Shown here piece after piece: positions 4,732-30,679 of a DNA stretch of 32,000 nucleotides. A program made the position numbers and the translations under genes. Position 1 is the first letter of the stretch. Each line of letters starts with the position of its first letter. Under the pieces are notes generated by a model. The model ran no database searches. It saw only the letters and a list, made by a program, of their open reading frames with translations, and was not told the DNA's origin. This DNA is from Vibrio cholerae ATCC 14035 (lineage in GTDB: Bacteria; Pseudomonadota; Gammaproteobacteria; Enterobacterales; Vibrionaceae): positions 270,001 to 302,000 of the forward strand of contig NZ_JHXR01000002.1 of the NCBI RefSeq assembly GCF_000621645.1. Direction: 5' to 3'.

Positions 4732-4850
4732 GGTAATACTCCAAAAAATGACCAGAATCAGGGCTTATGAGGGATCAAAATCCAAAACGAAAAGCACTGA
4801 AAACCGAAAGATGTAGCAAAGCCGCACCTTGAAATTCAGTGTGTTTGTCA

Positions 4851-4981
4851 TTCTCTCTCATCCGGACTGTAACCGTCGGCTCTGGCTTCTCACCAGATCT
4901 GCTGACCTCGACGAATCGAGCGCTCGTGGGCTCGCCTTGCGGCATACCACCGGTGGGGAATTTCGCCCCGCCCTGAGAATA
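4851..4981 (-). promoter_or_regulatory. FMN riboswitch (RFN element) in the ribB leader
   Basis: The minus strand reads TTCTCAGGGCGGGGCGAAATTCCCCACCGGTGG...GCCCACGAGCG...GTCAGCAGATCTGGTGAGAAGCCAGAGCCGACGGTTACAGTCCGGATGAGAGAGAA. This matches the conserved RFN core. The roughly 120-nt expression platform (4732-4850) contains the T-rich CACTGAA...TTCAGTGCTTTTCGTTTT. Confidence 0.93.
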
Positions 4982-5120
4982 TTGTTGTGTTTCAGACGAT
5001 TCTGAAACGCCGCTTAGTGTAGTCAGTTCAACGGGCGGTGAAAAGCGTTACGGACAAACTTGTTTTGAATATCACCGTTTTTGAGCAAGAAAAGTCGATA
5101 AAAAGAACATCAGCGCGGAT

Positions 5121-6565: not shown

Positions 6566-8728
6566 TTAACGTTTCAGTACATAGCCCATGGCTTGCACTC
6601 GTCCCTCGCCTGTCGGCTCCAAATACACCCCTTGCAATTCAGGCGCAAAACCCGGCAGCAAGTTAATGCCTTCTTCTAGAGCGAGGAAGTAACGCTGTAC
6701 TGAACCGCCCCATATTTCTCCCGGAACCACACACAACACACCCGGAGGGTAAGGCAGTGCGCCTTCAGCGGCGATACGGCCTTCCACTTCACGCAGTGGG
6801 ACTAGCTCAACCTGACCACGTACAAAGGCCAAGTTCGCTTCTTGTGGGTTCATTACCGCACGTGGGAAATAACGCGCGCGGAACATCTCTTTTTGCAGCT
6901 GTTTCACATCATGGCTGACATACAGATCGTGCATTTCCTGACACAACTGACGGATGGTGTAGCCTTTGTAACGTTCGCGATTCGCACGGTACACGTTCGG
7001 CAATACTTCGCTCAGTGGTGCATCTTCTTCAATCAAGCGTTCAAAACGAGCAATTTGTGCCACTAAATGCTGCATCTTCGCCATATCTTCGGCTGGGGTG
7101 AGCAAAAAGAGGATCGAGTTCAAATCGCACTTCTCTGGGATGATGTTGTTCTCACGCAGGAAGTTGGCCAGTATGGTGGCCGGAATACCAAAGTGCTCGT
7201 ATTCGCCGGTTTCTGGGTCAATCCCCGGTGTGGTGAGCAGGAACTTACAAGGGTCAACGAAATACTGACCATGTTCGTAACCTTCAAACGCATGCCATTT
7301 CTGACCCGGTTCAAATTCAAAGAAACGCAAATCATCGGCAATTTGCTCGGTGGGGTGAGATTGCCAAGGTTTACCCTCGATCATTGGTGGAATGAACGGC
7401 TTGATGTATTTGCATTTTTTCATCAGTAGCTTACGGGCTTCGATACCGGTTTTCACCGCTTCGCGCCATAGGTAGCGGCCACTATCCCCTTCGTGCATTT
7501 TGGCGTTCACATCGAGCGCCGCAAACAGCGGGTAGAATGGGCTGGTTGAAGCGTGCAGCATAAAGGCATTGTTAAAGCGTTTATGGTTGCAGTAACGCTC
7601 TTGGCCTTTAATGTGGTGATCTTTCTTGTGGATTTGCGAAGTTTGCGAGAAACCTGCCTGCTGTTTATGTACAGACTGAGTGACGATAATGCCCGGATCT
7701 TCAGGCTTCAGATCGAGAAGAAGTGGTGAGCAATCTTTCATCATGGGAATGAACTGTTCATAGCCCACCCATGCTGAGTCAAACAGGATGTAGTCACACA
7801 AATGACCGATGCGATCCACCACCTGACGCGCGTTGTAAATCGTGCCGTCGTAAGTACCGAGCTGAATGATGGCAAGACGGAATGGGCGTTTCGCTTCCGC
7901 GCGGCTTGGGTCGACATTACGTACCGCATCACGTAGGTAAGATTCGTTAAAGCAGTGCGTATCAATCCCACCGATAAAACCGAATGGGTTACGCGCCGTT
8001 TCTAAGTAAACCGGTGTCGCACCCGCTTGAATTAACGCACCGTGGTGGTTGGATTTATGGTTGTTGCGATCAAACAGCACCAGATCTCCCGGTGTCAGCA
8101 GGGCGTTACACACCACTTTGTTGGAAGCTGAAGTCCCGTTAAGTACGAAGTAGGTTTTATCCGCGTTGTACACTTTCGCGGCGTAAGCCTGTGCATCATG
8201 CGGTGCACCTTCATGGATCAGCAAGTCGCCCAAACGTACGTCCGCGTTACACATATCAGAGCGGAACAAGGTTTCACCAAAGAAATCAAAAAACTGGCGA
8301 CCAACCGGGTGCTTACGGAAGAACTGACCACCTTGATGGCCTGGGCAAGCAAAAGTGGAGTTACCCATGTCCACGTATTTTTTCAATGTACCAAAGAAAG
8401 GTGGCAACAAACTTTCTTGATAACGACGCACGGCAGTTTCCACTTGCTTACCGTAGAACTCGACTTTGGCATCACACAGCTCAAATACCCCGGTGATATC
8501 GGCGCAAAAATCATCTGGGAATTGGTCTTCGCAGCACACAGCAACAAAGATCGGCAGTTTCAAACCGGTCGCATTCATTTTATCTATGATGCCGTTTTGT
8601 ACGTCTTCGACGGAAACCACCGCCGCACCAATGTCACAGAAGTCGGTTTTCAGTACATCCACCACTTCACGTTGGGTTGTGAAGCAAGAGCGAACCGATA
8701 AACTCGTAGCAATTTTTAATGAATTCAT
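6566..8728 (-). CDS. speF: Inducible (biodegradative) ornithine decarboxylase, PLP-dependent
   Basis: 720-aa ORF, colinear with E. coli SpeF as recalled (CPGHQGG.FFR.HP.G, FDRNNHKSNHHGAL, SVHKQQAGFSQTSQIHKKD, GALPYPPGVLCVVPGE). Confidence 0.95.
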   Translation of the reverse strand: MNSLKIATSLSVRSCFTTQREVVDVLKTDFCDIGAAVVSVEDVQNGIIDKMNATGLKLPIFVAVCCEDQFPDDFCADITGVFELCDAKVEFYGKQVETAVRRYQESLLPPFFGTLKKYVDMGNSTFACPGHQGGQFFRKHPVGRQFFDFFGETLFRSDMCNADVRLGDLLIHEGAPHDAQAYAAKVYNADKTYFVLNGTSASNKVVCNALLTPGDLVLFDRNNHKSNHHGALIQAGATPVYLETARNPFGFIGGIDTHCFNESYLRDAVRNVDPSRAEAKRPFRLAIIQLGTYDGTIYNARQVVDRIGHLCDYILFDSAWVGYEQFIPMMKDCSPLLLDLKPEDPGIIVTQSVHKQQAGFSQTSQIHKKDHHIKGQERYCNHKRFNNAFMLHASTSPFYPLFAALDVNAKMHEGDSGRYLWREAVKTGIEARKLLMKKCKYIKPFIPPMIEGKPWQSHPTEQIADDLRFFEFEPGQKWHAFEGYEHGQYFVDPCKFLLTTPGIDPETGEYEHFGIPATILANFLRENNIIPEKCDLNSILFLLTPAEDMAKMQHLVAQIARFERLIEEDAPLSEVLPNVYRANRERYKGYTIRQLCQEMHDLYVSHDVKQLQKEMFRARYFPRAVMNPQEANLAFVRGQVELVPLREVEGRIAAEGALPYPPGVLCVVPGEIWGGSVQRYFLALEEGINLLPGFAPELQGVYLEPTGEGRVQAMGYVLKR

Positions 8729-9067
8729 ATTTAGCCTTTCTTATTTTTTTTGAGTAAACGAATTCCAAGCCAAATTATTTTTAGCGTGCAGGAAATCGCT
8801 CAGCAAAATAAATATTGCCGTCACAAAGGCTGAGATAGAAATAATGGAGAGCCCCAGCCTAAGAACGGGTGAATATTCTTTTGCTTAATAATGATTTTTC
8901 TTGGGCATACCTAGAGATTCACTCAGTTTCGGTAGGAGCAGGCAAAACCAACATGATTTCACATCACGCCAAAGGGCGTAAAAATCCATGAATATGCCTT
9001 AATACCTCAACATGAGGAAAGCAGGTATAGGACGAACCTTTAGCTGACAAGCAGCCTAAAGCTCTCG

Positions 9068-9184
9068 TTACAGATGAGATGTCGATTGGGTAAAGAAAGA
9101 GTAGTCAAAGTAGTCACGGTGAGACGGCATCATGATGTGCCGAGTCCTGCGAATGTGTGCCATGATTTTTGATTTCTTTTTCAT
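9068..9184 (-). CDS. speFL: speFL-like leader peptide (ornithine-sensing arrest peptide), 38 codons
   Basis: Too short for the ORF track. On the minus strand, ATG at 9184 with a GGAG SD 8 nt upstream and TAA at 9070-9068. Peptide: MKKKSKIMAHIRRTRHIMMPSHRDYFDYSFFTQSTSHL. Compare E. coli SpeFL as I recall it: MENNSRTMPHIRRTTHIMKFAHRNSFDFHFFNAR. They share M.HIRRT.HIM and HR..FD..FF. It lies 340 nt upstream of speF. Confidence 0.8.
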   Translation of the reverse strand: MKKKSKIMAHIRRTRHIMMPSHRDYFDYSFFTQSTSHL

Positions 9185-9532
9185 ATACAACTCCGTTACA
9201 AATAATCAAGAAACCAGTTTACGTCGTTTTGCTTAGAAAGCAGGCGCATTCTATACCCCAAGGAAAAATTAAAATTTGACCATTATCACACCTTAATACG
9301 CATAGATATATATTTTAGATTTATTTACCAACAAGAATAGGTATTACCATATATATCCTAGGAATTGAGCAAAACTATAAGAAAATAATATAGCGGAGAA
9401 CAAAATAAACAGAACAACGCACTATCAAACACTCGTAATCCAACCGGATAAAATGCAACATTAACAACAAATGCCACATATTTAATGACATTCAATAACA
9501 CTGCTGTTTTTCAATTTGACGTGAGATCCTGC

Positions 9533-9658
9533 TATACCCAAACTACTTGGAGTTGCAGGTAGGTGGCAAGTGAGTTCATCCCCATCAACATACACAGGCT
9601 TATGATTGGAATGCACGAGCGTAGCCAACACCGCGGCTGCTTCAAGTAGGAATGGGAT
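9533..9658 (+). repeat. ERIC-like element, copy B (3' of the aldehyde dehydrogenase gene)
   Basis: TATACCCAAACTACTTGGAGTTGCAGGTAGGTGGCAAGTGAGTTCATCCCCAT...GTAGCCAACACCGCGGCTGCTTCAAGTAGGAATGGGAT. The ends are roughly 90% identical to copy C, and the centre is diverged. Confidence 0.8.
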
Positions 9659-9710
9659 CGCATCAAGCCAGACGCTGGCTGGCTTGATATAGTGAGCGAC
9701 ATCAGAAAGA

Positions 9711-11153
9711 TTAGCGCCCAAAAAATCGAGTGAGGACGCGTAACATCGATTGACGATAAGTCAGCAGCCAACCACTACGTGGCAACCACGCGGCTGAACG
9801 CAGCACCGTCTTACTGTGCGAAAAAGTCTTAAAGCCTTCGATTCCGTGGTAATGCCCCTGCCCTGATTCACCAATGCCGCCAAATGGCGCATCATCCGCC
9901 GCAACATGCATTAAGGTATCGTTCACACACGCACCACCACTGTGGGTACGCTGCAAAATATGATTAGCCAGATGGCTCTCTTTGGTCATCACGTACAGCG
10001 CCAATGGCCGTGGGCCTTGATTGACTCGCTCAATCGCTTCTTCAATATTGCGATAACCGATCACCGGCAGGATCGGGCCAAAGATCTCTTGTTGCATCAC
10101 CAGCATGTCATCACTGACTTCGGTTAACAGATGCGGCAGCATCTGCCTTGCTTCAAGTTCTACTGTTTTGCCCACTACAGTATTGAGTTTGGCACCTTTT
10201 TGCTGTGCATCATCCAAACAGTGTTGTAATCGGTCAAACTGCGCTTGGTTAATGATTTGTGTCACATCCATACTACCATGACGGATAAAACGGCGCGCAA
10301 AACGCTGCAAATAAAGCTCAACGAAGGTCGCGACTTTCGCTTGCGGCAGCATGACGTAATCCGGTGCGACACAGATCTGCCCGGCATTGGTGGTTTTACC
10401 CAGCATGATGTTATCCACGCTACGCGCGAGATCCGCATCGTCAGCAATGATCACTGGAGATTTGCCCCCCAACTCTAACGTCACAGGTGTTAAATTTTTC
10501 GCGGCCGCTTGCGCCACTAACTTGCCTACGGCGGTTGAACCCGTAAACAGCAGATGATCAAATCGCAAGGCACTAAAAGCCGCAGCAACCTTCGCATCAC
10601 CTTGCACGCAAACCGCGATATCGCCTAACGCGGCAATCACACGCGCTAGTACCTGATTGGTGGCAGGTGTGTACTCGCTCAATTTCACCATCACCTGATT
10701 CCCCGCAGCAACAGCGGTGATCAGTGGTGCAATACTAAGCAAAATAGGAAAATTCCAAGGTACCATTACCCCCACCACACCCAAGGGCTGAAATTGCACT
10801 TCAACACGCGAAGGCAGCAGCATCCATCCTGCATGTCGCCGCTGCGGCTTCATCCACTTTTTCAGTTGCTTAGCCGTGTAATTGAGATGATTTAACGTTG
10901 GCAGTAAATCGCACAGACCGCTATCAAAACGACTACGGAAACCATAATCTTGATTGACTGCGGCAATCAGGGCTTCGTTTTCACGCAATAAAGCCTGTTT
11001 GAGCTGGGTTAAACGTTGCAAACGGTGGGTCAAACTCGGATAAGGCGTATTGGCATACTGCCTTTTTAGGCGCGTAAATTCAGCCTGCAAAGCTTCGATT
11101 GCTGACGAGATTTCTGGTGACTCAGCACGAGACACCACAGAGAGTTGAACCAT
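9711..11153 (-). CDS. NAD(P)+-dependent aldehyde dehydrogenase (coniferyl-aldehyde dehydrogenase-like subfamily)
   Basis: 480-aa ORF with ALDH catalytic motifs LELGGKSP (Glu) and NAGQICVAPDY (Cys), plus the PWNFP motif. GGAG SD upstream. Confidence 0.9.
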   Translation of the reverse strand: MVQLSVVSRAESPEISSAIEALQAEFTRLKRQYANTPYPSLTHRLQRLTQLKQALLRENEALIAAVNQDYGFRSRFDSGLCDLLPTLNHLNYTAKQLKKWMKPQRRHAGWMLLPSRVEVQFQPLGVVGVMVPWNFPILLSIAPLITAVAAGNQVMVKLSEYTPATNQVLARVIAALGDIAVCVQGDAKVAAAFSALRFDHLLFTGSTAVGKLVAQAAAKNLTPVTLELGGKSPVIIADDADLARSVDNIMLGKTTNAGQICVAPDYVMLPQAKVATFVELYLQRFARRFIRHGSMDVTQIINQAQFDRLQHCLDDAQQKGAKLNTVVGKTVELEARQMLPHLLTEVSDDMLVMQQEIFGPILPVIGYRNIEEAIERVNQGPRPLALYVMTKESHLANHILQRTHSGGACVNDTLMHVAADDAPFGGIGESGQGHYHGIEGFKTFSHSKTVLRSAAWLPRSGWLLTYRQSMLRVLTRFFGR

Positions 11154-20414: not shown

Positions 20415-21278
20415 TTAGATCGAAGAAGAAAAGCGCCGCTTATATTGCGAAGGTGAAATACCATGTAACCGAGAAAAAGTATGCGTGAACGTACTTTGAT
20501 TGGAAAAACCCGTCAGCTCCGCAATCTGACCCAAATTAAGTCGACCTTGCTCAATCAACTTCTTCGCCATATCGACGCGTTTGTTCAACACATATTGATG
20601 CGGCGTGAGCCCCATTTGCTCTTTGAACAAGACATGAAATTGGCTTTCACTTAAGAACACGCTTCCTGCTAACTGTGCAACGGAAATTCGGTGCGCTAAG
20701 TGCTGCTCGATATAGCGATCCACCACTTCCATATCAAAGCGAGACTCTTTATGGACACTGGCCAGCGCGCTGATGTGGCGCTGCAAAAGTGCAACAACCG
20801 TATCGTTACAAGCTCGGCCAAGCAGCAAGTCGTCAGGACTGGCTTGCATCTCCTGCACCAGCATTTGAATTAAACGTTGGATCTGACCATCGAGTTGAAA
20901 ATAAACGTCACCGACCACGAGTTCATTGAGTTTGCGCAGTAGTAGCGGATCATCGTCACTCGGCACTGGCATATTGAGCACCAGAATATCCGATTGCCCC
21001 ACGACACCACCAAACGCATGATCCGAACCGGATGTCACCACACACCCCTGCCCGGGCCCGACAATATTCCCCATACCACGGACTTCAAATTCAGCCTGCC
21101 CTTTCAAGCCAATCACAATTTGCGTGTAACTATGATCATGGCAAGCCATATGTGAAGGCAAAGTGATCAGTTCTGCCGGTTTAGGCGACAAAACTTTGGC
21201 AATGGAAGAAGCCTTGCCAGCCTCTGGGGCATGCGATTGAGCCATTTCAACCTCATCAGGTGGGATTTGCGCGGCCAT
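20415..21278 (-). CDS. AraC/XylS-family transcriptional regulator with an N-terminal cupin-type sensor domain
   Basis: 287-aa ORF with a C-terminal double HTH (IAELTGFSNQSTFTHTFSRLHGISPSQYKRR). The start is ambiguous: ATG 21278, or ATG 21245 which has a better GAGG SD. It lies directly upstream of putA in the same orientation and divergent from crvA. Confidence 0.85.
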   Translation of the reverse strand: MAAQIPPDEVEMAQSHAPEAGKASSIAKVLSPKPAELITLPSHMACHDHSYTQIVIGLKGQAEFEVRGMGNIVGPGQGCVVTSGSDHAFGGVVGQSDILVLNMPVPSDDDPLLLRKLNELVVGDVYFQLDGQIQRLIQMLVQEMQASPDDLLLGRACNDTVVALLQRHISALASVHKESRFDMEVVDRYIEQHLAHRISVAQLAGSVFLSESQFHVLFKEQMGLTPHQYVLNKRVDMAKKLIEQGRLNLGQIAELTGFSNQSTFTHTFSRLHGISPSQYKRRFSSSI

Positions 21279-21669
21279 GGTATCTCAAATTGCTTCAAAA
21301 CGAAATCACTCCCATTTAGAGGCTTTGATAGCCAATTACGCACATATTAATAAAAGATCTTGGCTGCAATTGGGTTCAATTCTCATCTCGGAACAATGAT
21401 CAAGTGCACATAAATTACGGTCAATGTGTACTCAATTTAAAAAACGTTAAAGTAGATCGGAAAACTCAGCTTGCATATTTCTCGAATCTGCTCAAAATGA
21501 AAATGCTTAGATCTAAAGTTCAAAAAATCAGTCACCTAGTGCACAGATTTGTGATGATTTCTGACTAAGCGGAATAAAATTTGCATTAATAATTCAGCTA
21601 TCTACAAAGCTGTCAAAAGTTTGTCTTTCCCACTTTATGTGGCTAAACATAAATATGTTGCAGGGACCT

Positions 21670-22776
21670 ATGATTAAACGTCGCATCCCAGCGCTATTGC
21701 TTGCGCTATCCCCTTTATGGGTATCTGCATCGGTGTACGCAGAGGAGGTCACTCAGGCTGACCCCGTTGCGGCTATCGATGAGAAATTGAGTAACAAACA
21801 AAATGAAATCAACGCGATTCTCACCGACTACGAGGTGGAAAGCGGTAAACTGCAACAACTGAAAAATGAGCAGAGTCGATTAAAACGTGAAGGCGAAGAG
21901 CTAGATGCTAAGCGTAATCGTGCTAAGTCTGAGTTGGACAAACAGTATACTCGCCTTCTTGAAGATCCAGACACCGACCTAGTCACCTTTCAAAAACGCT
22001 ACCAAGAGGCGTGGAATGCGCTCAAGTCGAATCAATCACAAAAACTCGACAACGAACAAGCGGTGACTGAAATTGAAATGCGTCTGTCGCAAATCAAACA
22101 GCGACAAGCGCGTTTGGATACTGAGCTGACCAATTTGGAAGAAGCCAAAATTGAGGCTCGCGTTAAGCGTTTAGCGGCGGAACTGCGTGAAAGTAGCGTG
22201 TTAGAAACTACCTTCAAGACGACCTGTTCAACCACCATGACACTGGGTGAATGTGCTAATCAGGGCCAATACCTGACGAAGCAGAAAGCGGTGAAAACTT
22301 TCCGTGAAAATCTCATCAATGATGTCACGGAATCCGCGATCGCGAAGCAAAACTTGAAAGGCGTTGAGTTCAATATTCACGTTCAAGAAAGCCAAATGAT
22401 CCGCTCAGGTTTTGAAGGTAACAACGAATACTTCACCCAAATGCAAGCTCAGCTACAAGCCAAACCAGAAGCTGTCGCGGCGTGTAAACTGCTGAATGTG
22501 GAAACCCGTTACTGTTTAAAGGGTGAGTCAGAACAAGCGGCTCCTAAGAAACAAGATAAACAGTGGGCGAACGTGACAGTACGCTCTGATCAATACAATG
22601 ATTCTGTGACCATTAATGGCGTCAACTATGGTAGTACTCCCGTTGAACTCGTATTACCAGCGGGTAAACACCAAGTCACCGTATCGAAAGAAGGTTATGA
22701 AACCTACAATCGTGTGATTACGGTCAATGGCAATGACACGGTGTGGGTAAAACTCAGACCAAACAAAGACAGCTAG
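21670..22776 (+). CDS. crvA: Periplasmic coiled-coil / PEGA-domain filament protein (cell-curvature determinant CrvA)
   Basis: The ORF is 21637-22776. I prefer ATG 21670, which yields a signal peptide MIKRRIPALLLALSPLWVSASVYA|EE. A long heptad-rich Q/E/K/L region follows, then two Cys pairs. The C-terminal PEGA domain reads VTINGVNYGSTPVELVLPAGKHQVTVSKEGYETY. The symbol comes from my recollection of V. cholerae VCA1075. Confidence 0.85.
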   Translation: MIKRRIPALLLALSPLWVSASVYAEEVTQADPVAAIDEKLSNKQNEINAILTDYEVESGKLQQLKNEQSRLKREGEELDAKRNRAKSELDKQYTRLLEDPDTDLVTFQKRYQEAWNALKSNQSQKLDNEQAVTEIEMRLSQIKQRQARLDTELTNLEEAKIEARVKRLAAELRESSVLETTFKTTCSTTMTLGECANQGQYLTKQKAVKTFRENLINDVTESAIAKQNLKGVEFNIHVQESQMIRSGFEGNNEYFTQMQAQLQAKPEAVAACKLLNVETRYCLKGESEQAAPKKQDKQWANVTVRSDQYNDSVTINGVNYGSTPVELVLPAGKHQVTVSKEGYETYNRVITVNGNDTVWVKLRPNKDS

Positions 22777-22825
22777 CCGCACAAAAATCCAACGATTTCT
22801 TGTCGGAATTCACAAACCTGTCGAT

Positions 22826-22887
22826 AAAACGCCATTTTGTCACTAAGTTATTGAAAGATGACTTCTGACAAAATGGCGTTTTCGTTT
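22826..22887 (+). terminator. Long-stem terminator after crvA, overlapping a putative crvB promoter
   Basis: 17-bp perfect stem AAAACGCCATTTTGTCA / TGACAAAATGGCGTTTT with a 23-nt loop, followed by TTTTCGTTT. TAGAAT (22887-22892) with TGACAA about 16 nt upstream could serve as the -10/-35 for crvB. Confidence 0.65.
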
Positions 22888-22935
22888 AGAATGCTCATAA
22901 CTTAGACTTAATTTCCTAACTTGAAGTAGACCACC

Positions 22936-24753
22936 ATGCGACAAGGGATTCCCGCTTTATTATTAGCACTTTCACCTTGCTTAATGGCAGCACCAGTGCT
23001 AGCAGAAGAAGTCACCTCTTCTGTTCTTGCCATTGACGATGCGCTGTTTGGCAAACATACCGAGCTGCAAAATGCCACGGATGCAACCAAACTTCAAAAA
23101 GTGGCCGTCGATAACCAACAGGCCGAGCTGAATCGCTTGACTCAGCAAGCGAAAGCTTTGGATGCGGCGCTAAAAACAGCCAAAACCAACCTTGAGCGTG
23201 ATTATCAAAAAATGATTGATGAGCCGGATCTCGACATCCAGCCATCACAAAACGCGTATCAAGCCGCATGGGCTCAGGTCAAACAGAACCAAGTCGCACG
23301 TTTGGATGCTGAACAAAAACTGCAAGAGATGCAGTCGGTATTGGCACAATACCAGGTGCAACAGCAGACCATAGAGCAGAGTATTGCCCTACTCCAACAA
23401 GACAAAATGCGCGCACGTGTGGATAGACTGCGCGAGGAGTTGCAACGTTCTGGTGAACAAAAAGTCAGCTTCACCAATGTGTGTAGTTCGGACATGACAT
23501 TTGCACAATGTAGCAAACAGACCACAGATTTAGCGTTGCAGAAAGCGGTCAGCCAATTTCAACTTTGGCTTATCGATGAAAGCAGTGAGTCCAACGCGAT
23601 CAAAGGACAATTGAGTAATGTCTCGCTCAATATCCATCTGCTCAAACATGAAGTGGTCGATTCTGGTTTCTATGACGGCATGCGGTTTAGAAGCATAGTG
23701 AATGCTCAACTTGAAGCTCGTCCCGCGGAAAACGCTCCTTGTAAGCTCTTGAATATTGACTCGCAGTACTGTTTCGCGCCCGGTCAAGGTGATATGTCGC
23801 AGCAGCAACAAGAAGTGGCTTGGATTAACTTAGCCATCCGCTCCAATCAACATGGCGATCGGGTGACCATTGGTGGTGTCAATTATGGCAGTACTCCGGT
23901 TGAAGTATTACTGCCTGTTGGTAAACATCAGATAAAAATTGAAAAAGAGGGCTTCCGCACTTTTGAGCAAGAAGTCAACATCACCTCCGATCAGACCATT
24001 CGGGTTAACTTGCATGAAAAGGCGAACCCTTTACGTGTCGGACAGAAATTTGCCGATTCGGGAAAAAGTAAAGTCAGCGCACCAGAGGTGATCACCATTC
24101 TACCGGGGCAATATCTGTTGGGCGAAAATGCCGCCAAACAATATAACCTTGATCATGCTTTCGCACTCAGCTCAACGCCCGTGACAGTTAGCCAGTTTGA
24201 AAACTTCGTCACTCAAACCAAATACAAAACTGATGCGGAACTCAAAAATCTCTGTATTTCGGTGAATGAATCGGAAATTGCTCCAGTATCCGATAGCGAT
24301 TGGCGCAACCCAGGTTTCAAACAGAGTAAAGATTCACCCGTTGTGTGCGTCAGCCAGAATGATGCCAAAGCTTATGCTCGCTGGCTTTCTAAAGAAACAG
24401 GCTTTACGTACCGCTTACCCACGGAAGAAGAGTGGGAAATCGCCGCTCGTGCAGGCAGCAAAACCGATTACTGGTGGGGCAATAAATTTGGTGCTGGTAA
24501 AGCCAACACGGGATGGGCAGGAACCTCTTGGTCTAACAAAAGTACCTCCCCAGTCAAAGCCTTCGCTCCTAACGCCTTAGGGTTTTACGACATGGTAGGT
24601 AATGTTTGGGAATGGACTGGCGATTCACGCGGTTTAGCCAAAGGTGGCGCTTGGAGCTTCTCGCCTGAAATGGCAAAAGCCTATAGCGAGCTTTTTGTTG
24701 GCCCAACAACGGCGGCCAATTATGTCGGTTTCCGAGTATTGCGCGAGCTGTAA
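22936..24753 (+). CDS. crvB: CrvA paralogue with an added C-terminal FGE-sulfatase (SUMF1-like) domain (CrvB)
   Basis: 605-aa ORF. The signal peptide MRQGIPALLLALSPCLMAAPVLA|EE is nearly identical to CrvA's. The coiled-coil region, two Cys pairs and PEGA domain (VTIGGVNYGSTPVEVLLPVGKHQIKIEKEGFRTF) are all shared. The last ~220 aa carry FGE-sulfatase motifs (YRLPTEEEWEIAARAG, FYDMVGNVWEWT, GFRV). Confidence 0.85.
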   Translation: MRQGIPALLLALSPCLMAAPVLAEEVTSSVLAIDDALFGKHTELQNATDATKLQKVAVDNQQAELNRLTQQAKALDAALKTAKTNLERDYQKMIDEPDLDIQPSQNAYQAAWAQVKQNQVARLDAEQKLQEMQSVLAQYQVQQQTIEQSIALLQQDKMRARVDRLREELQRSGEQKVSFTNVCSSDMTFAQCSKQTTDLALQKAVSQFQLWLIDESSESNAIKGQLSNVSLNIHLLKHEVVDSGFYDGMRFRSIVNAQLEARPAENAPCKLLNIDSQYCFAPGQGDMSQQQQEVAWINLAIRSNQHGDRVTIGGVNYGSTPVEVLLPVGKHQIKIEKEGFRTFEQEVNITSDQTIRVNLHEKANPLRVGQKFADSGKSKVSAPEVITILPGQYLLGENAAKQYNLDHAFALSSTPVTVSQFENFVTQTKYKTDAELKNLCISVNESEIAPVSDSDWRNPGFKQSKDSPVVCVSQNDAKAYARWLSKETGFTYRLPTEEEWEIAARAGSKTDYWWGNKFGAGKANTGWAGTSWSNKSTSPVKAFAPNALGFYDMVGNVWEWTGDSRGLAKGGAWSFSPEMAKAYSELFVGPTTAANYVGFRVLREL

Positions 24754-24778
24754 TGTTGACTCAAACAATTATGCATAA

Positions 24779-24800
24779 AGGGGGGATTTCCCCCCTTTTT
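24779..24800 (+). promoter_or_regulatory. AGGGGGGATTTCCCCCCT palindrome: the VqmA operator of the vqmR promoter, and structurally a crvB intrinsic terminator
   Basis: G6 (24780-24785), ATTT, C6 (24790-24795), then T5 (24796-24800), located 26 nt after the crvB stop. The sequence equals the VqmA-bound palindrome as I recall it from VqmA-DNA structural work. It is centred about 43 bp upstream of the inferred vqmR transcription start. Confidence 0.7.
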
Positions 24801-24830: not shown

Positions 24831-24981
24831 CAGAGCATGAGTTGCATGACTGATGCTTGGTATCAATATGATACCTCTGTGTGTTCAGCAGACCCTCGCT
24901 GGATTCATGGAACCTCTTCTACACGTCGACAAGATATGTTTCTTGTATTTATGCCAGCCCGTCTTCAGGCTGGCTTTTTTT
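24831..24981 (+). ncRNA. vqmR: VqmR Hfq-dependent small RNA (approximate 5' end)
   Basis: A -10-like TAAAGT (24819-24824) lies downstream of the operator. The 3' end is a clear terminator, GCCAGCC-CGTCTTCA-GGCTGGC plus T7 (24953-24981). The implied length of about 151 nt and the position directly upstream of vqmA match the published VqmR locus as I recall it. Confidence 0.75.
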
Positions 24982-25072
24982 CATCCAAACAGTCCCCCGA
25001 ATAGGCAAGATAAGCTTACAATCGACCCTGCTCTTGGTATCATATCGCCGCATTTCCAGTGGAGGATATGGC

Positions 25073-25813
25073 GTGCCTAACCATCTGACATTAGAGCAGA
25101 TTTCTTTATTCAAACAATTACCCGGTTATTGGGGATGCAAGGACTTAAACTCGGTTTTTGTGTATGCCAACCAAGCCTATGGCGAATTGATCGGCTTAAA
25201 GCGCGCTGAAGATTGCATCGGGCGCACCGATTTTGAAATGCCTAGCCCAACAGCAGCTTGTGCTGCCGAATTTCAACAGCAAGATCGCTATGTGATTGAA
25301 ACGGGGCATTCCGTCAAAGTGCTCGATATTCATCCCTACCCTGATGGCCACTGGCATGCGCATATATTTACCAAGACACCGTGGCGTGATAGCCAAGGCA
25401 AGATCCAAGGCACCATTTTCTTCGGGCAAGATTTAACCGACACTGCGATTCTTGAAGTTGGTCATTGGGTCTGCCGAGCAACTGGGTTATCCACCTCCAC
25501 CACATTTAAATCGGTCGCCGATCGCGATACCTTGAAACTGACCGCGCGTGAATCAGAAGTCCTATTTCTGCTCTTATACGGTAAAAAACCGCAGCACATT
25601 GCACGAGTAATGGGGATTTCGATTAAAACGGTGGAAGGGTATGAGGCCAAACTACGCAGTAAATTTGGGGCATTGAGCAAAGACCAACTGATTGACCTTG
25701 CTTTAGATCGGGGATTCGGCTCAGTCATCCCGAAAACCTTGCTTAGAAAACAACTTTCCGTTGTGCTGAGCGATCACACGATCCCCAAAAAAGTTGACGT
25801 TGTCGCCCAGTAA
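25073..25813 (+). CDS. vqmA: LuxR-type quorum-sensing receptor/transcription factor VqmA (PAS ligand-binding domain plus LuxR HTH)
   Basis: The in-frame GTG at 25073 is preceded by a GGAGGA SD (25061-25066) and gives a 246-aa protein, MPNHLTLEQISLFKQLPGYWGCKD... The C-terminal HTH_LuxR reads LTARESEVLFLLLYGKKPQHIARVMGISIKTVEGYEAKLRSKFG. The 310-aa ORF in the track is an artefactual 5' extension that runs through the VqmR terminator. Confidence 0.9.
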   Translation: MPNHLTLEQISLFKQLPGYWGCKDLNSVFVYANQAYGELIGLKRAEDCIGRTDFEMPSPTAACAAEFQQQDRYVIETGHSVKVLDIHPYPDGHWHAHIFTKTPWRDSQGKIQGTIFFGQDLTDTAILEVGHWVCRATGLSTSTTFKSVADRDTLKLTARESEVLFLLLYGKKPQHIARVMGISIKTVEGYEAKLRSKFGALSKDQLIDLALDRGFGSVIPKTLLRKQLSVVLSDHTIPKKVDVVAQ

Positions 25814-26477: not shown

Positions 26478-26700
26478 TTCTGCTCCTCACTGATTTTTGC
26501 CCGATTGTGCGCCTATCCCGCTGATAACTCAAGCGAGCAAAGTGATGCCAAGGCCGACAAAATAAGATCACAAATTCTAAAAATTAAGTAATTTATTAAA
26601 ATGCTGAATAGGCCTTTCGCCGCAGATAGCATATCCTTAACAATTATTGGCCCACGTAATAAAATCAACCGACTATCAATGGTGTGAACAGGAACCACTC

Positions 26701-28092
26701 ATGAGCAATCGCAGTTATAACAAGCTCACCGCCGAAGAATTAGACTATGTGGACGATAAAACCGCCGCACTGCTACTCAATACGCCGCACAGCGCACGAA
26801 TCATTCTCTGGGTCATGGTGGCATTTTTTATTCTAGCGATTGCTTGGGCGTCATGGGCAGAAATCGATAAAGTCACGGTCGGCCAAGGTAAAGTGGTTCC
26901 CTCCTCACAAGTGCAAGTGATCCAAAACTTGGAAGGGGGACTGGTCAAGCAGATCCTCGTCCGTGAAGGTGAGCAAGTCCAAAAAGGCCAACAGCTTATC
27001 TTGATCGACGACACACGCTTTCGCTCCGATTTTCGCGAGCGCGAGCAGCAAGTTGCAAACTTAACCGCCAGTGTTCTACAACTTTCTGCTTCCATTTCAA
27101 GCGTCATTATCGATGAGAATTTTGAAGAGAAGAACTGGGCAAATAGCGTACAACTTGATTACAGCAAGCTTGCTTTCCCTCCCGTATTGAGTGATAGCCA
27201 GCCAGATTTGGTTGAACGCCAACGAGATCAATATCGCCAAGATCTCGATAACCTGCGCAACCAATTGTCCGTTCTCTCTCAACAAATCAAGCAGAAACAG
27301 CAAGATTTGATTGAAGCCGAAGCGCGAATCATCAACCTTCGCCAAAGTTATGATTACGCGAAAAAAGAACTCGACATCACTGAGCCTCTCGCCAACGAAG
27401 GCGTAGTCCCGAAAATTGAACTGCTGAAACTACAGCGCCAGTTGAATGATACTCGCCGAGAGTTAACCTCAACTGAGCTAAAAATTCCCGTACTCAAATC
27501 CGCGGTCCGTGAAGCGATGCTCAGTCGAATTAATGCCGCGCAAAAATTCCGAACTGAGCAGCAAGATAAACTCAACCAAGCGCAAGATAAGCTCTCATCT
27601 CTCACTGAATCGGCGGTCGGCCTCGAGGATAAAGTGAACCGTACGGTAGTGGTTTCCCCCGTAACAGGCACCGTAAAAACCCTTTATGTGAACACGGTAG
27701 GTGGGGTGATTCAACCGGGAATGAACATCATCGAAATCGTACCGACTGAAGACACTCTATTGGTCGAGGCTCAAATTGCGCCGCAAGACATCGCCTTTCT
27801 GCGCCCAGATCTGCCAGCTATTGTGAAATTTAGTGCTTATGATTTCACGCGCTATGGTGGCTTAGAAGGCACGCTCGAACACATCAGTGCGGACACTACA
27901 CAGGATGAGGAAGGGAATAGTTTCTATTTGGTTCGCGTACGCACTAAAGAAACCACTCTCGGGCATGATCAAAATTTGCCGATCATTCCGGGAATGACCG
28001 CTTCTGTCGACATTATTACCGGTAAAAGAACTGTATTAGATTATCTGCTGAAACCGATTTTAAGTGCGCAAAGCAATGCGCTGAGGGAATAG
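26701..28092 (+). CDS. lapC: Type I secretion membrane fusion protein (HlyD family)
   Basis: The ORF is 26647-28092; I prefer ATG 26701 (MSNRSYNKL..., AGGAA SD). The protein has an N-terminal TM segment, long coiled-coil hairpin regions, a lipoyl/beta-barrel part and the C-terminal T1SS MFP motif (GMTASVDIITGKRTVLDYLLKP). The symbol is by analogy to the Pseudomonas Lap system. Confidence 0.85.
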   Translation: MSNRSYNKLTAEELDYVDDKTAALLLNTPHSARIILWVMVAFFILAIAWASWAEIDKVTVGQGKVVPSSQVQVIQNLEGGLVKQILVREGEQVQKGQQLILIDDTRFRSDFREREQQVANLTASVLQLSASISSVIIDENFEEKNWANSVQLDYSKLAFPPVLSDSQPDLVERQRDQYRQDLDNLRNQLSVLSQQIKQKQQDLIEAEARIINLRQSYDYAKKELDITEPLANEGVVPKIELLKLQRQLNDTRRELTSTELKIPVLKSAVREAMLSRINAAQKFRTEQQDKLNQAQDKLSSLTESAVGLEDKVNRTVVVSPVTGTVKTLYVNTVGGVIQPGMNIIEIVPTEDTLLVEAQIAPQDIAFLRPDLPAIVKFSAYDFTRYGGLEGTLEHISADTTQDEEGNSFYLVRVRTKETTLGHDQNLPIIPGMTASVDIITGKRTVLDYLLKPILSAQSNALRE

Positions 28093-28100
28093 CCCGCCCT

Positions 28101-28763
28101 ATGAAACGTTGGATTGTGCTGTCTCTGGCTATCTGTGCCTCCTCACTCTCGCTAGCGCTCACAAGCAAAGAGCAACAGTGGGTAGATGCGGTGAAGGCAA
28201 CGTATGGCCAGCGAGCAGGCAAACGCGTCGAAACATGGCGTCGCAAAATGGCTGAGCTCGCTCCCGCATCAGAGCAAGAGCAATTAAAAGAAGTGAATGC
28301 CTTTTTTAATCAGCTCAACTTTGTCAACGATATTCACCTATGGGGCTCGAAAGACTACTGGGCGACCCCCTTAGAATTTCTCGGTAGCAACGCGGGAGAC
28401 TGTGAAGATTTCACAATTGCGAAGTATTTCTCGCTGTTAGAACTCGGTGTATCAGATAAGAAACTTCGTCTCGTGTATGTTAAAGCCATTGAATTAAATC
28501 AATTTCATATGGTGTTGGCGTATTACTCCACTCCGAGTGCCGAACCAGTGATTTTGGATAATATCAACCCACAAATTAAACCTGCGTCGAAACGTAAAGA
28601 TCTACTGCCGATTTACAGCTTTAACGGTAAAAATTTGTGGTTAATGAAATCGAATAACGGTCAATTGGCTGGGGACTCTTCGAGACTCAGTTTATGGAAT
28701 GATTTAAGAGCACGAGAGCGCTCACTGAAATTAAATAAACCTCTAGTTAGCTATGATGAGTAG
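28101..28763 (+). CDS. lapG: Periplasmic transglutaminase-like cysteine protease (BTLCP/DUF920), LapG-type adhesin-release protease
   Basis: 220-aa ORF with the signal peptide MKRWIVLSLAICASSLSLA. Catalytic-triad context: GDCEDFTIAKY (Cys), FHMVLAYY (His), ILDN (Asp). Confidence 0.85.
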   Translation: MKRWIVLSLAICASSLSLALTSKEQQWVDAVKATYGQRAGKRVETWRRKMAELAPASEQEQLKEVNAFFNQLNFVNDIHLWGSKDYWATPLEFLGSNAGDCEDFTIAKYFSLLELGVSDKKLRLVYVKAIELNQFHMVLAYYSTPSAEPVILDNINPQIKPASKRKDLLPIYSFNGKNLWLMKSNNGQLAGDSSRLSLWNDLRARERSLKLNKPLVSYDE

Positions 28764-28768
28764 GCACT

Positions 28769-30679
28769 ATGACGCTATACAAACAACTAGTCGCAGGGAT
28801 GATTGCGGTGTTTATTCTGTTGTTGATTTCGGTTTTTACTATCGAATTCAACACCACTCGCAACAGTCTTGAACAACAACAACGCTCTGAAGTCAACAAC
28901 ACCATAAATACGGTGGGTTTGGCTTTAGCGCCTTATCTGGAGAAGAAAGACACCATTGCGGTAGAGTCAGTCATCAATGCGCTGTTTGATGGCAGTAGTT
29001 ACTCGATCGTACGTCTGATTTTTCTCGATGACGGTACGGAAATCCTGCGCTCATACCCTATCCAACCCAATAATGTGCCGGCTTGGTTTACTCAGTTAAA
29101 TCTGTTTGAGCCCATCCATGATCGGCGTGTTGTAACCAGTGGTTGGATGCAATTGGCGGAAGTGGAAATCGTCAGCCATCCTGGTGCGGCTTACGCTCAA
29201 CTCTGGAAAGCATTAATTCGTTTAAGTATCGCGTTTTTGGCGATCTTAGTGATTGGTATGTTTGCCGTCGCCTTCATTTTGAAGCGCTCTCTAAGACCAC
29301 TACAACTCATCGTCAACAAAATGGAGCAGGTTGCTAACAACCAATTTGGTGAGCCTCTACCGCGCCCCAACACTCGAGATCTGATTTATGTAGTAGATGG
29401 CATCAATAAGATGTCTGAACAGGTCGAGAAAGCGTTTAAAGCCCAAGCCAAAGAGGCGCAGCAACTGCGTGAACGTGCTTATCTTGACCCAGTTTCTCAT
29501 CTTGGCAACCGAGCATACTACATGAGCCAATTGAGTGGCTGGCTCTCTGAAAGCGGCATCGGTGGTGTAGCCATTCTACAAGCTGAATTCATCAAAGAGC
29601 TTTATGAAGAGAAGGGCTATGAAGCCGGTGATGGCATGGTGCGCGAACTGGCGGATCGCCTTAAAAACTCCATCACCATCAAGGACATCTCTATCGCTCG
29701 TATCTCCACTTACGAGTTCGGTATCATCATGCCTAACATGGATGAAACTGAGCTCAAAATCGTGGCAGAGAGCATCATCACTTGTGTGGACGACATTAAC
29801 CCTGATCCTACTGGTATGGCGAAAGCCAATTTATCGCTTGGCGTGGTAAGCAATAAGCGTCAATCCAGCACCACAACGCTCTTGTCCCTGCTGGATAATG
29901 CGTTAGCTAAAGCGAAATCCAATCCTGAGCTGAACTACGGCTTTATTAGCAGTGATACTGATAAAATCATCTTGGGCAAACAGCAGTGGAAAACTCTGGT
30001 CGAAGAGGCAATCCATAACGACTGGTTTACTTTCCGCTACCAAGCCGCCAACAGCAGTTGGGGAAAAACATTCCATCGCGAGGTCTTTTCTGCGTTTGAG
30101 AAAGACGGCGTGCGTTACACGGCAAACCAATTCTTGTTTGCCCTTGAACAGCTCAATGCTAGCCATATCTTCGATCAGTACGTGATTGAACGTGTGATTC
30201 AACAGCTTGAAAAAGGCGAACTGACCGATCCACTCGCGATCAACATCGCACAAGGCAGTATCTCTCAACCGAGCTTTATCCGTTGGATCAGCCAAACCTT
30301 AAGCAAGCATCTTTCTGTGGCCAACTTACTGCATTTTGAGATCCCAGAAGGCTGTTTCGTCAATGAACCGCATTACACTGCGCTATTTTGTAACGCAGTA
30401 CGCAATGCAGGGGCGGACTTTGGGGTAGACAACTACGGACGTAACTTCCAATCTCTCGACTACATCAACGAGTTCCGTCCTAAATACGTCAAACTGGATT
30501 ATCTATTTACTCACCATTTGGATGATGAACGCCAGAAATTTACCCTGACCTCAATCTCGCGCACCGCGCATAACTTAGGGATCACCACCATCGCATCACG
30601 GGTTGAAACACAGACTCAGCTCGATTTTCTTTCAGAACATTTCATCGAAGTCTTCCAAGGCTTCATTGTTGATAAGTAA
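28769..30679 (+). CDS. lapD: Inner-membrane c-di-GMP receptor LapD (LapD_MoxY_N periplasmic domain, HAMP, degenerate GGDEF, degenerate EAL)
   Basis: 636-aa ORF with two TM segments flanking a periplasmic domain that carries the GW loop (TSGWMQL). A HAMP domain follows TM2. The GGDEF position reads RISTYEFG and the EAL position reads REVFSAF, both degenerate as expected for a receptor rather than an enzyme. Confidence 0.85.
   Translation: MTLYKQLVAGMIAVFILLLISVFTIEFNTTRNSLEQQQRSEVNNTINTVGLALAPYLEKKDTIAVESVINALFDGSSYSIVRLIFLDDGTEILRSYPIQPNNVPAWFTQLNLFEPIHDRRVVTSGWMQLAEVEIVSHPGAAYAQLWKALIRLSIAFLAILVIGMFAVAFILKRSLRPLQLIVNKMEQVANNQFGEPLPRPNTRDLIYVVDGINKMSEQVEKAFKAQAKEAQQLRERAYLDPVSHLGNRAYYMSQLSGWLSESGIGGVAILQAEFIKELYEEKGYEAGDGMVRELADRLKNSITIKDISIARISTYEFGIIMPNMDETELKIVAESIITCVDDINPDPTGMAKANLSLGVVSNKRQSSTTTLLSLLDNALAKAKSNPELNYGFISSDTDKIILGKQQWKTLVEEAIHNDWFTFRYQAANSSWGKTFHREVFSAFEKDGVRYTANQFLFALEQLNASHIFDQYVIERVIQQLEKGELTDPLAINIAQGSISQPSFIRWISQTLSKHLSVANLLHFEIPEGCFVNEPHYTALFCNAVRNAGADFGVDNYGRNFQSLDYINEFRPKYVKLDYLFTHHLDDERQKFTLTSISRTAHNLGITTIASRVETQTQLDFLSEHFIEVFQGFIVDK

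Follow-up and report, generated by a model that had tools for sequence, protein, structure and literature searches.

Identity and layout of the gene pair

How can two neighbouring genes for exported proteins bend a bacterial cell, and which parts of their products would do so? The question is raised by a gene pair at positions 21,670 to 24,753 of a 32,000-nucleotide (nt) stretch of Vibrio cholerae ATCC 14035 (contig NZ_JHXR01000002.1, positions 270,001 to 302,000), hereafter the window, which an original prediction made from the sequence alone had read as the cell-curvature module crvA-crvB. Both open reading frames (ORFs) were found adjoining on the forward strand, as described there. Exact-sequence look-up placed ORF1 in a cluster with VC_A1075 of V. 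cholerae O1 biovar El Tor N16961 (named "hypothetical protein") and Q9KKM8_VIBCH, and ORF2 in a cluster with Q9KKM6_VIBCH. VCA1075 is crvA (10.1101/2020.04.15.043257), and crvB has been defined as the larger homologue directly 3' of crvA, with a C-terminal CrvB-specific (CBS) domain of ~250 amino acids (aa) (10.1101/2020.02.20.954503). In agreement with this definition, ORF2 was 37% identical to ORF1 over 362 aa (BLASTP, E 1e-84) and carried an extra domain at residues 382–603. As the sequences are identical to VC_A1075/Q9KKM8 and Q9KKM6, the proposed identity is correct, and we put the probability that the pair is the crvA-crvB module of V. cholerae chromosome II at about 0.93. The system is, as had also been said, already described; its discovery in the window adds nothing new in itself, and novelty is low because the module is already published. 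CrvA and CrvB of V. cholerae are reportedly the subject of Bartlett et al. (2017, Cell) and Martin et al. (2021, Nat Microbiol; preprint 2020). The additions made here are at the level of annotation, namely the cysteine pattern, the PvdO-like CBS domain, a hairpin model and elements in the spacer, all of them absent from the preprint (10.1101/2020.02.20.954503).

Curvature requires both CrvA and CrvB, which do not complement each other, and deletion results in straight cells; in the periplasm the two co-localise in a single filament along the inner curve, CrvA by itself gives small puncta, and CrvB promotes long filaments in a dose-dependent manner (10.1101/2020.02.20.954503). The CBS domain is required, a CrvA-CBS fusion is enough, and the pair of proteins also makes E. 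coli, P. aeruginosa, C. crescentus and A. tumefaciens curved, with no need for MreB or FtsZ (10.1101/2020.02.20.954503). The periplasmic location of both proteins has been reported experimentally, and according to reports the filament comes apart and forms again as the growth phase changes. Its presence leads to asymmetric peptidoglycan insertion (10.1101/2020.04.15.043257, PMC5502672), in which the outer face grows faster and the rod bends (as summarised in PMC5502672, PMC11369160). CrvAB is among the few known periplasmic (periskeletal) polymers; its two genes bend unrelated bacteria, and it is relevant to cell-shape biology and to colonisation by V. cholerae.

CrvA and CrvB shared one layout, consisting of a signal peptide, a helical region with heptads, a cysteine-bearing alpha/beta domain and a PEGA domain (Table 1). 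An alternative ATG upstream of crvA, at 21637, would give a protein of 379 aa; the start at 21670 was preferred because it gives a canonical signal peptide, has GCAGGGA just before it and corresponds to the RefSeq form. Signal peptides were judged by eye from the sequence rather than by a predictor, looking for a basic n-region, a hydrophobic core and small residues at -3 and -1, and on these grounds both proteins would be exported through signal peptidase I-type signal peptides. The predicted near-identity of these peptides was borne out, as the core IPALLLALSP was the same in both ORFs, with 10 synonymous differences in the 30 nt encoding it (21685-21714 versus 22948-22977), and blastn detected a single stretch of 68 nt between the two genes. 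The identical peptide with so many synonymous differences therefore argues for selection at the peptide level; the differences and the single blastn stretch ruled out a recent gene conversion of the core and indicate that the crvA/crvB duplication is old. Among CrvA orthologues the signal peptide had a mean column identity of 0.79 versus 0.66 for the coiled coil, which is unusual for signal peptides. A lipoprotein form of CrvB processed at C15 (LSPC) was considered and rejected, with Pro at -1 and Cys present in just 83% of the orthologues.

Loci were retrieved from 80 Vibrio species, and conservation was calculated from 79 CrvA and 78 CrvB sequences. The tandem of crvA followed by crvB was present at 79 of the 80 loci, the exception being a contig that ends after crvA. 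A plasmid collection gave one match, an uninformative one, to a 599-kb replicon of Vibrio sp. HDW18 that carries a locus with 80% identity. Shortened crvA ORFs occurred in Vibrio metoecus OP3H (238 aa; locus L004, 5397-6113) and V. furnissii CIP 102972 (306 aa; locus L068, 4986-5906), where the tblastn match was full-length in each case; they represent either a frameshift or pseudogene, or else a sequencing error. Antisense ORFs of 83-93 aa within crvB (23012-23811) were treated as chance occurrences inside a well-supported gene.

Folds, cysteines and spacer elements

AlphaFold models of CrvA and CrvB (mean predicted local distance difference test, pLDDT, 86.4 and 77.2) followed the same plan, with a disordered signal peptide, two helices of equal length, an alpha/beta domain, a low-confidence linker and the PEGA domain. 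The helices spanned residues 32-98 and 104-172 in CrvA, and 30-95 and 102-169 in CrvB, where the break between them fell at EPDLDI (residues 96-101). A heptad-rich coiled coil of roughly 130 residues had been proposed for each protein. Indeed, the helical segments comprised ~140 residues, and a home-made test comparing their a/d occupancy with shuffled controls gave z values of 4.6 for CrvA and 4.4 for CrvB, so that both contain an extended heptad coiled-coil rod of the kind found in intermediate filament (IF)-like and coiled-coil-rich proteins. A sequence search of the PDB with CrvA returned chance-level matches only. The assignment of PEGA domains to both proteins was confirmed by profile search, with PF08308 scores of 84.8 and 83.0 bits for CrvA and CrvB versus a gathering cut-off of 20.8; in the CrvA model this domain is a beta-sandwich, which Foldseek matched to carboxypeptidase-regulatory-like domains.

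The middle domain of CrvA was modelled (pLDDT ~90) with the topology strand-helix-helix-strand-strand-helix (strand 175-185, helices 192-217 and 222-227, strands 236-248 and 253-264, helix 270-275), and a Foldseek search with it gave no solved-structure match. It is in this domain that two cysteine pairs had been noticed in each protein. All four quoted motifs were exact; a third pair of CrvB, C440/C471, had been overlooked. C186, C195, C272 and C282 were invariant in the 79 CrvA sequences, in which 22% of the columns are invariant overall, and so were C183, C192, C269 and C279 together with C440 and C471 in the 78 CrvB sequences (17% of columns invariant), the mature proteins of both sets containing no further cysteine. 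Searched exhaustively, a set of 1.84 billion representatives yielded full-length Crv relatives down to 22% identity; when 27 of these were aligned (22-57% identity), four of the 10 invariant columns were the shared cysteines. The spacing C-x8-C-x76-C-x9-C was constant in CrvA, CrvB and the 27 representatives, apart from x75 in one sequence, and the mature proteins of all 27 contained 4, 6 or 8 conserved cysteines at fixed spacing, never an odd number. The Crv proteins thus have the even number of conserved cysteines in an exported protein that marks DsbA substrates. Even, spacing-fixed conserved cysteines in exported proteins of DsbA-containing bacteria are the expected signature of structural disulfides. 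Long forms of the family always had an extra pair, ~30 residues apart, in the domain with the fold of formylglycine-generating enzyme (FGE). Moreover, distant long forms carried an additional N-C-x-x-C-G where V. cholerae CrvB has NTGWAG (residues ~516-521, window ~24481-24498; alignment columns ~745-760), which may represent a metal site or else a fourth disulfide gained or lost in particular lineages. Neither the cysteines of CrvA and CrvB nor a connection between dsbA and curvature is mentioned in the CrvAB preprint or in the texts reached by full-text literature searches, a scope that fits the earlier impression that the pairs had not been examined; the primary journal papers, outside this scope, may treat them or the domains. 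In the texts covered, DsbA appears solely as a signal-sequence marker.

The extra domain that had been described as enzyme-like and confined to the second gene was matched by PF03781 (FGE-sulfatase) in ORF2 only (E 1.8e-56, 192 bits versus a cut-off of 23.3). Its closest sequences in the PDB were PvdO (5hha, 6e-25) and pFGE/SUMF2 (1y4j, 3e-20), followed by FGEs at ~1e-16 and, more distantly, by PorK/GldK (9mzu, 9ots; E 6e-9). Foldseek ranked its matches in the same way, with PvdO at 5e-11, then pFGE and FGE, down to 5e-7. The alignments with FGEs ended at GNVWEWT, and the last 38 residues of CrvB aligned only with the cysteine-free C-terminus of PvdO; both of these proteins terminate in GFRV-REL, and C471 of CrvB aligned with a cysteine of PvdO.

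The spacer between crvA and crvB, of median length 153 nt across the Vibrio loci, contained a perfect inverted repeat (arms 22826-22842 and 22866-22882; fold z -4.86) with UUUUCGUUU directly after it. In 76 of the 80 species the spacer contained a hairpin at least as stable as -15 kcal/mol, and among 53 unique spacers its stem was 87-98% paired, several pair types occurring at five covarying positions. The promoter-like motif TTTTCGTTTAGAAT was present in 63 of 80 spacers. Partial termination after crvA may be expected from this arrangement, and a separate promoter for crvB, placed after a terminator-like hairpin close to crvA, is a possibility for which we see even odds; it would make the CrvA:CrvB ratio independently adjustable.

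Alternative readings and a working model

The monomer model suggests that the helical region forms an intramolecular antiparallel hairpin ~10 nm long with a conserved DPxxD turn, and not a parallel rod of the IF type. A parallel dimeric rod would agree with the description of CrvA as coiled-coil-rich and IF-like (10.1101/2020.04.15.043257, PMC5502672), with the significant heptad periodicity and with the fact that the fold-back of helices in monomer AlphaFold models can be an artefact. Nevertheless the two arms are equal in length and P100 and D103 (CrvA numbering), exactly between them, are invariant over the alignment of CrvA and CrvB, P100 being also at least 90% conserved in the wider Crv family; moreover the hairpin was modelled at pLDDT >90, and Foldseek superposed it on antiparallel hairpins (iSH2, colicin E3) at 2.2-2.9 Å. 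At ~140 aa, such a rod would also have less than half the length of the IF and crescentin rods. We regard the parallel arrangement as the less likely of the two. With respect to the cysteines, their pattern makes it likely that they form DsbA-made structural disulfides locking the middle and CBS domains, and short spacings that do not vary speak for two local bonds, each closing a loop. A set of 2+2 invariant cysteines is also a signature of structural zinc sites, and invariance alone cannot discriminate between the two; a tetrathiolate site for a metal such as Zn is nonetheless improbable for periplasmic proteins, in an oxidising compartment with DsbA, the more so as the x8 and x9 spacings exceed those typical of zinc knuckles and the additional cysteines of the family are without exception paired (C440/C471; CxxC in the distant long forms), as would be expected of disulfides. 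Slimmer still is the chance that the cysteines, conserved as they are in a polymer-forming protein, cross-link filament subunits through intermolecular disulfides, since the reported disassembly and reassembly of the filament fits covalent links poorly and strictly constant local spacing is better suited to loop-closing bonds within one molecule.

The fold of the CBS domain raises the further question of whether CrvB is an enzyme of the FGE, EgtB or PvdO oxidase type, which would modify CrvA, CrvB or the cell wall and drive assembly by its chemistry. The strong FGE-sulfatase match points in this direction, as do the conservation of the domain (mean column identity 0.67 versus 0.50-0.58 elsewhere in CrvB, the highest of the protein), its database name ("SUMF1/EgtB/PvdO family nonheme iron enzyme") and the annotation of PvdO as a dihydropyoverdine dehydrogenase. 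However, catalytic FGEs use two cysteines in a C-terminal active-site loop (C336/C341 in human FGE), and none of the 78 CrvB orthologues has any cysteine after residue 471. The FGE fold that had been predicted thus stands, without the FGE catalytic cysteines, and because these are absent the CBS domain is probably no formylglycine-generating enzyme. EgtB and OvoA sulfoxide synthases possess an N-terminal DinB-like domain with iron-binding histidines; no DinB-type domain was matched by Pfam in CrvB, whose scores against the NCBIfam models of EgtB, OvoA and SenA were 47-60 bits, with cut-offs of 360-420, all enzyme equivalogs being likewise far below cut-off. The name "nonheme iron enzyme" is therefore not supported. 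FGE-fold proteins can moreover be purely structural in the periplasm, as the PorK/GldK matches illustrate. Because the FGE, EgtB and OvoA features are missing, the CrvA-CBS fusion suffices and the module functions in five unrelated host species, we consider it likely that the CBS domain is a non-catalytic assembly or binding module, and unlikely that it is an active enzyme.

In the working model that emerges, both proteins would be exported, and each mature form would consist of a helical hairpin (~67 residues per arm), the cysteine-patterned alpha/beta domain and a PEGA domain; CrvB would in addition carry a PvdO-like domain of the FGE fold, which has an invariant cysteine pair of its own. 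DsbA-made disulfides would lock the middle and CBS domains, the latter serving assembly or binding without catalysis, and a promoter of its own behind the crvA-proximal hairpin would let crvB be expressed at a level set independently of crvA. Several points weigh against this model: disulfide bonding enters it purely as something that we infer, the hairpin comes from a monomer model that may fold back helices belonging to inter-subunit contacts, the high conservation of the CBS domain would also fit an enzyme and PvdO itself is needed for an oxidation step (according to its NCBIfam name), and the promoter and terminator calls are consensus matches only. In any case, the three invariant cysteine pairs offer a simple genetic and biochemical handle on the folding of the filament and on its assembly, which would proceed without nucleotides, and a PvdO-like CBS domain devoid of FGE catalytic residues speaks for a part in binding or assembly and against the enzyme name given to CrvB in databases.

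Genomic setting, wider family and known systems

Positions of the features in the window are collected in Table 1. The order of genes was putP, putA, the divergent AraC-type regulator, crvA, crvB, VqmR, a PAS-LuxR gene, pdxH and HlyD/LapG/LapD-like genes. Of 79 Vibrio loci, 73 had an AraC-like gene divergent from crvA and directly 5' of it. The small RNA (sRNA) VadR pairs with the translation-initiation region of crvA and represses its translation (PMC7695739). The PAS-LuxR ORF that follows VqmR occupies the position of VqmA, with a likely GTG start near 25073, and a VqmA-like gene was located 3' of crvB in just 35 of 79 Vibrio species. An adhesin-retention cluster was also present near the crv genes, whose response to cyclic di-GMP (c-di-GMP) has been reported.

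Table 1. Positions of the crvA-crvB features and of neighbouring elements in the window
Feature	Position	Strand	Remarks
crvA coding sequence	21670..22776	+	368 aa; VC_A1075
CrvA signal peptide MIKRRIPALLLALSPLWVSASVYA	21670..21741	+	predicted signal peptidase I cleavage after VYA
CrvA helical coiled-coil region, residues 32-172	21763..22185	+	AlphaFold, heptad test, Foldseek
CrvA DPDTD break, residues 99-103	21964-21978	+	joins two ~67-residue helices
CrvA alpha/beta middle domain, residues 175-285	22192..22524	+	C186, C195, C272, C282; codons 22225, 22252, 22483, 22513
CrvA PEGA domain, residues 299-363	22564..22758	+	PF08308 E 3.8e-24
Perfect 17-bp inverted repeat AAAACGCCATTTTGTCA / TGACAAAATGGCGTTTT, then U-rich CGUUU	22826..22882	+	terminator- or attenuator-like hairpin
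Promoter-like CTGACA-16 nt-TAGAAT	22865..22892	+	10/12 consensus match; overlaps 3' arm of hairpin
crvB coding sequence	22936..24753	+	605 aa; Q9KKM6_VIBCH
CrvB signal peptide MRQGIPALLLALSPCLMAAPVLA	22936..23004	+	predicted cleavage after VLA
CrvB helical coiled-coil region, residues 30-169	23023..23442	+	AlphaFold; heptad z 4.4
CrvB alpha/beta middle domain, residues 172-282	23449..23781	+	C183, C192, C269, C279; codons 23482, 23509, 23740, 23770
CrvB PEGA domain, residues 296-362	23821..24021	+	PF08308 E 1.5e-23
CBS domain, residues 382-603	24079..24744	+	FGE-sulfatase fold, PvdO-like; C440/C471 codons 24253, 24346
Putative intrinsic terminator 3' of crvB: AAAGGGGGGATTTCCCCCCTTT, then T run	24777..24798	+	strong
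AraC-type regulator gene	20415-21278	-	divergent from crvA
Intergenic region 5' of crvA, 391 bp	21279..21669	+	promoter, 5' untranslated region, translation-initiation region; shared with divergent AraC-type gene
VqmR sRNA	24831-24984	+	Rfam RF02834, 182 bits; 78 nt past crvB stop codon
FMN riboswitch	4846-4984	-	RF00050, 114.5 bits
HlyD-type type I secretion adaptor, LapG-like cysteine protease and LapD-like c-di-GMP receptor	26647-30679	+	adhesin-retention cluster

Homologues of crv have been stated to be restricted to the Vibrionaceae/Vibrionales, the "closest homologs" outside serving as an outgroup (10.1101/2020.02.20.954503). Full-length relatives with the same cysteine pattern were detected here in Ferrimonas aestuarii, Aliidiomarina maris and a Chromatiales metagenome-assembled genome, and the relatives beyond the Vibrionaceae were single genes, short or long. 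Three long-form clusters, one from Aliidiomarina maris and two from metagenomic contigs, lay between an MSHA-pilus-like cluster and mreB-mreC-mreD-maf-rng-yhdP, co-oriented with mreB and 91-129 nt upstream of it (L082, 6001-7875 then 7973-10373; L088, 6001-7881 then 8010 on; L089, 6001-7959 then 8050 on). These three proteins were less than 50% identical to one another, each coming from a separate 50%-identity cluster, and the loci may come from one family. The relative at L086 (3556-5500) adjoined an NlpC/P60 peptidase and an SLT lytic transglycosylase, and the Chromatiales short form (L084, 1600-4065) was two genes away from a PBP1b-type synthase; neither mreB nor a peptidoglycan-enzyme gene was a neighbour at the Ferrimonas locus (L081), L087 or L090. 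The mreB and peptidoglycan-enzyme contexts are suggestive of an envelope or shape role of the Crv relatives, and their presence beside mreBCD in other families extends the likely reach of the system. As a tentative proposal, on which we would bet somewhat against, the C-x8-C-x76-C-x9-C domain might be a disulfide-locked core needed for filament assembly, curvature being hence dependent on DsbA and periplasmic redox, and with a Crv family extending beyond the Vibrionaceae, Crv-type polymers might be a more general gammaproteobacterial shape device.

The single-gene form of the system is represented by CrvY of Aliivibrio fischeri (VF_A0834), reported to combine a CrvA-like N-terminal part and a CBS domain in one protein. 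The long-form relatives of Vibrio stylophorae (P0272) and Aliidiomarina (P0427), as well as P0293 and P0306, have this architecture and all three cysteine pairs. The crvA-crvB pair analysed here differs from CrvY as described in being a duplicated, specialised two-gene version.

Among curvature systems, crescentin (CreS) of Caulobacter crescentus is likewise a polymer rich in coiled coil; it lies along the inner curve and bends the rod by biasing the growth of the wall (PMC11369160, PMC5502672). It differs in being cytoplasmic and has no substantial sequence similarity to Crv (10.1101/2020.02.20.954503). Crescentin has no signal peptide, cysteine domain, PEGA or FGE-fold domain. By comparison with crescentin, CrvA has a far shorter helical part, for which a hairpin is predicted.

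For the CBS domain, PvdO (5hha) and pFGE/SUMF2 (1y4j) were the best matches in both sequence and structure, and both are FGE-fold proteins not known to have FGE activity. PvdO and CrvB are alike in an active-site-loop segment devoid of cysteines; PvdO, however, is a stand-alone periplasmic protein of pyoverdine maturation, whereas CrvB carries the domain as a fusion to a scaffold that forms polymers. In the type IX secretion system, the FGE-fold proteins PorK/GldK serve structurally in a large periplasmic assembly, a role like that proposed for the CBS domain. As they are lipoproteins that form rings with PorN and their similarity to CrvB is distant, they provide an analogy for the structural use of the fold rather than a case of common membership.

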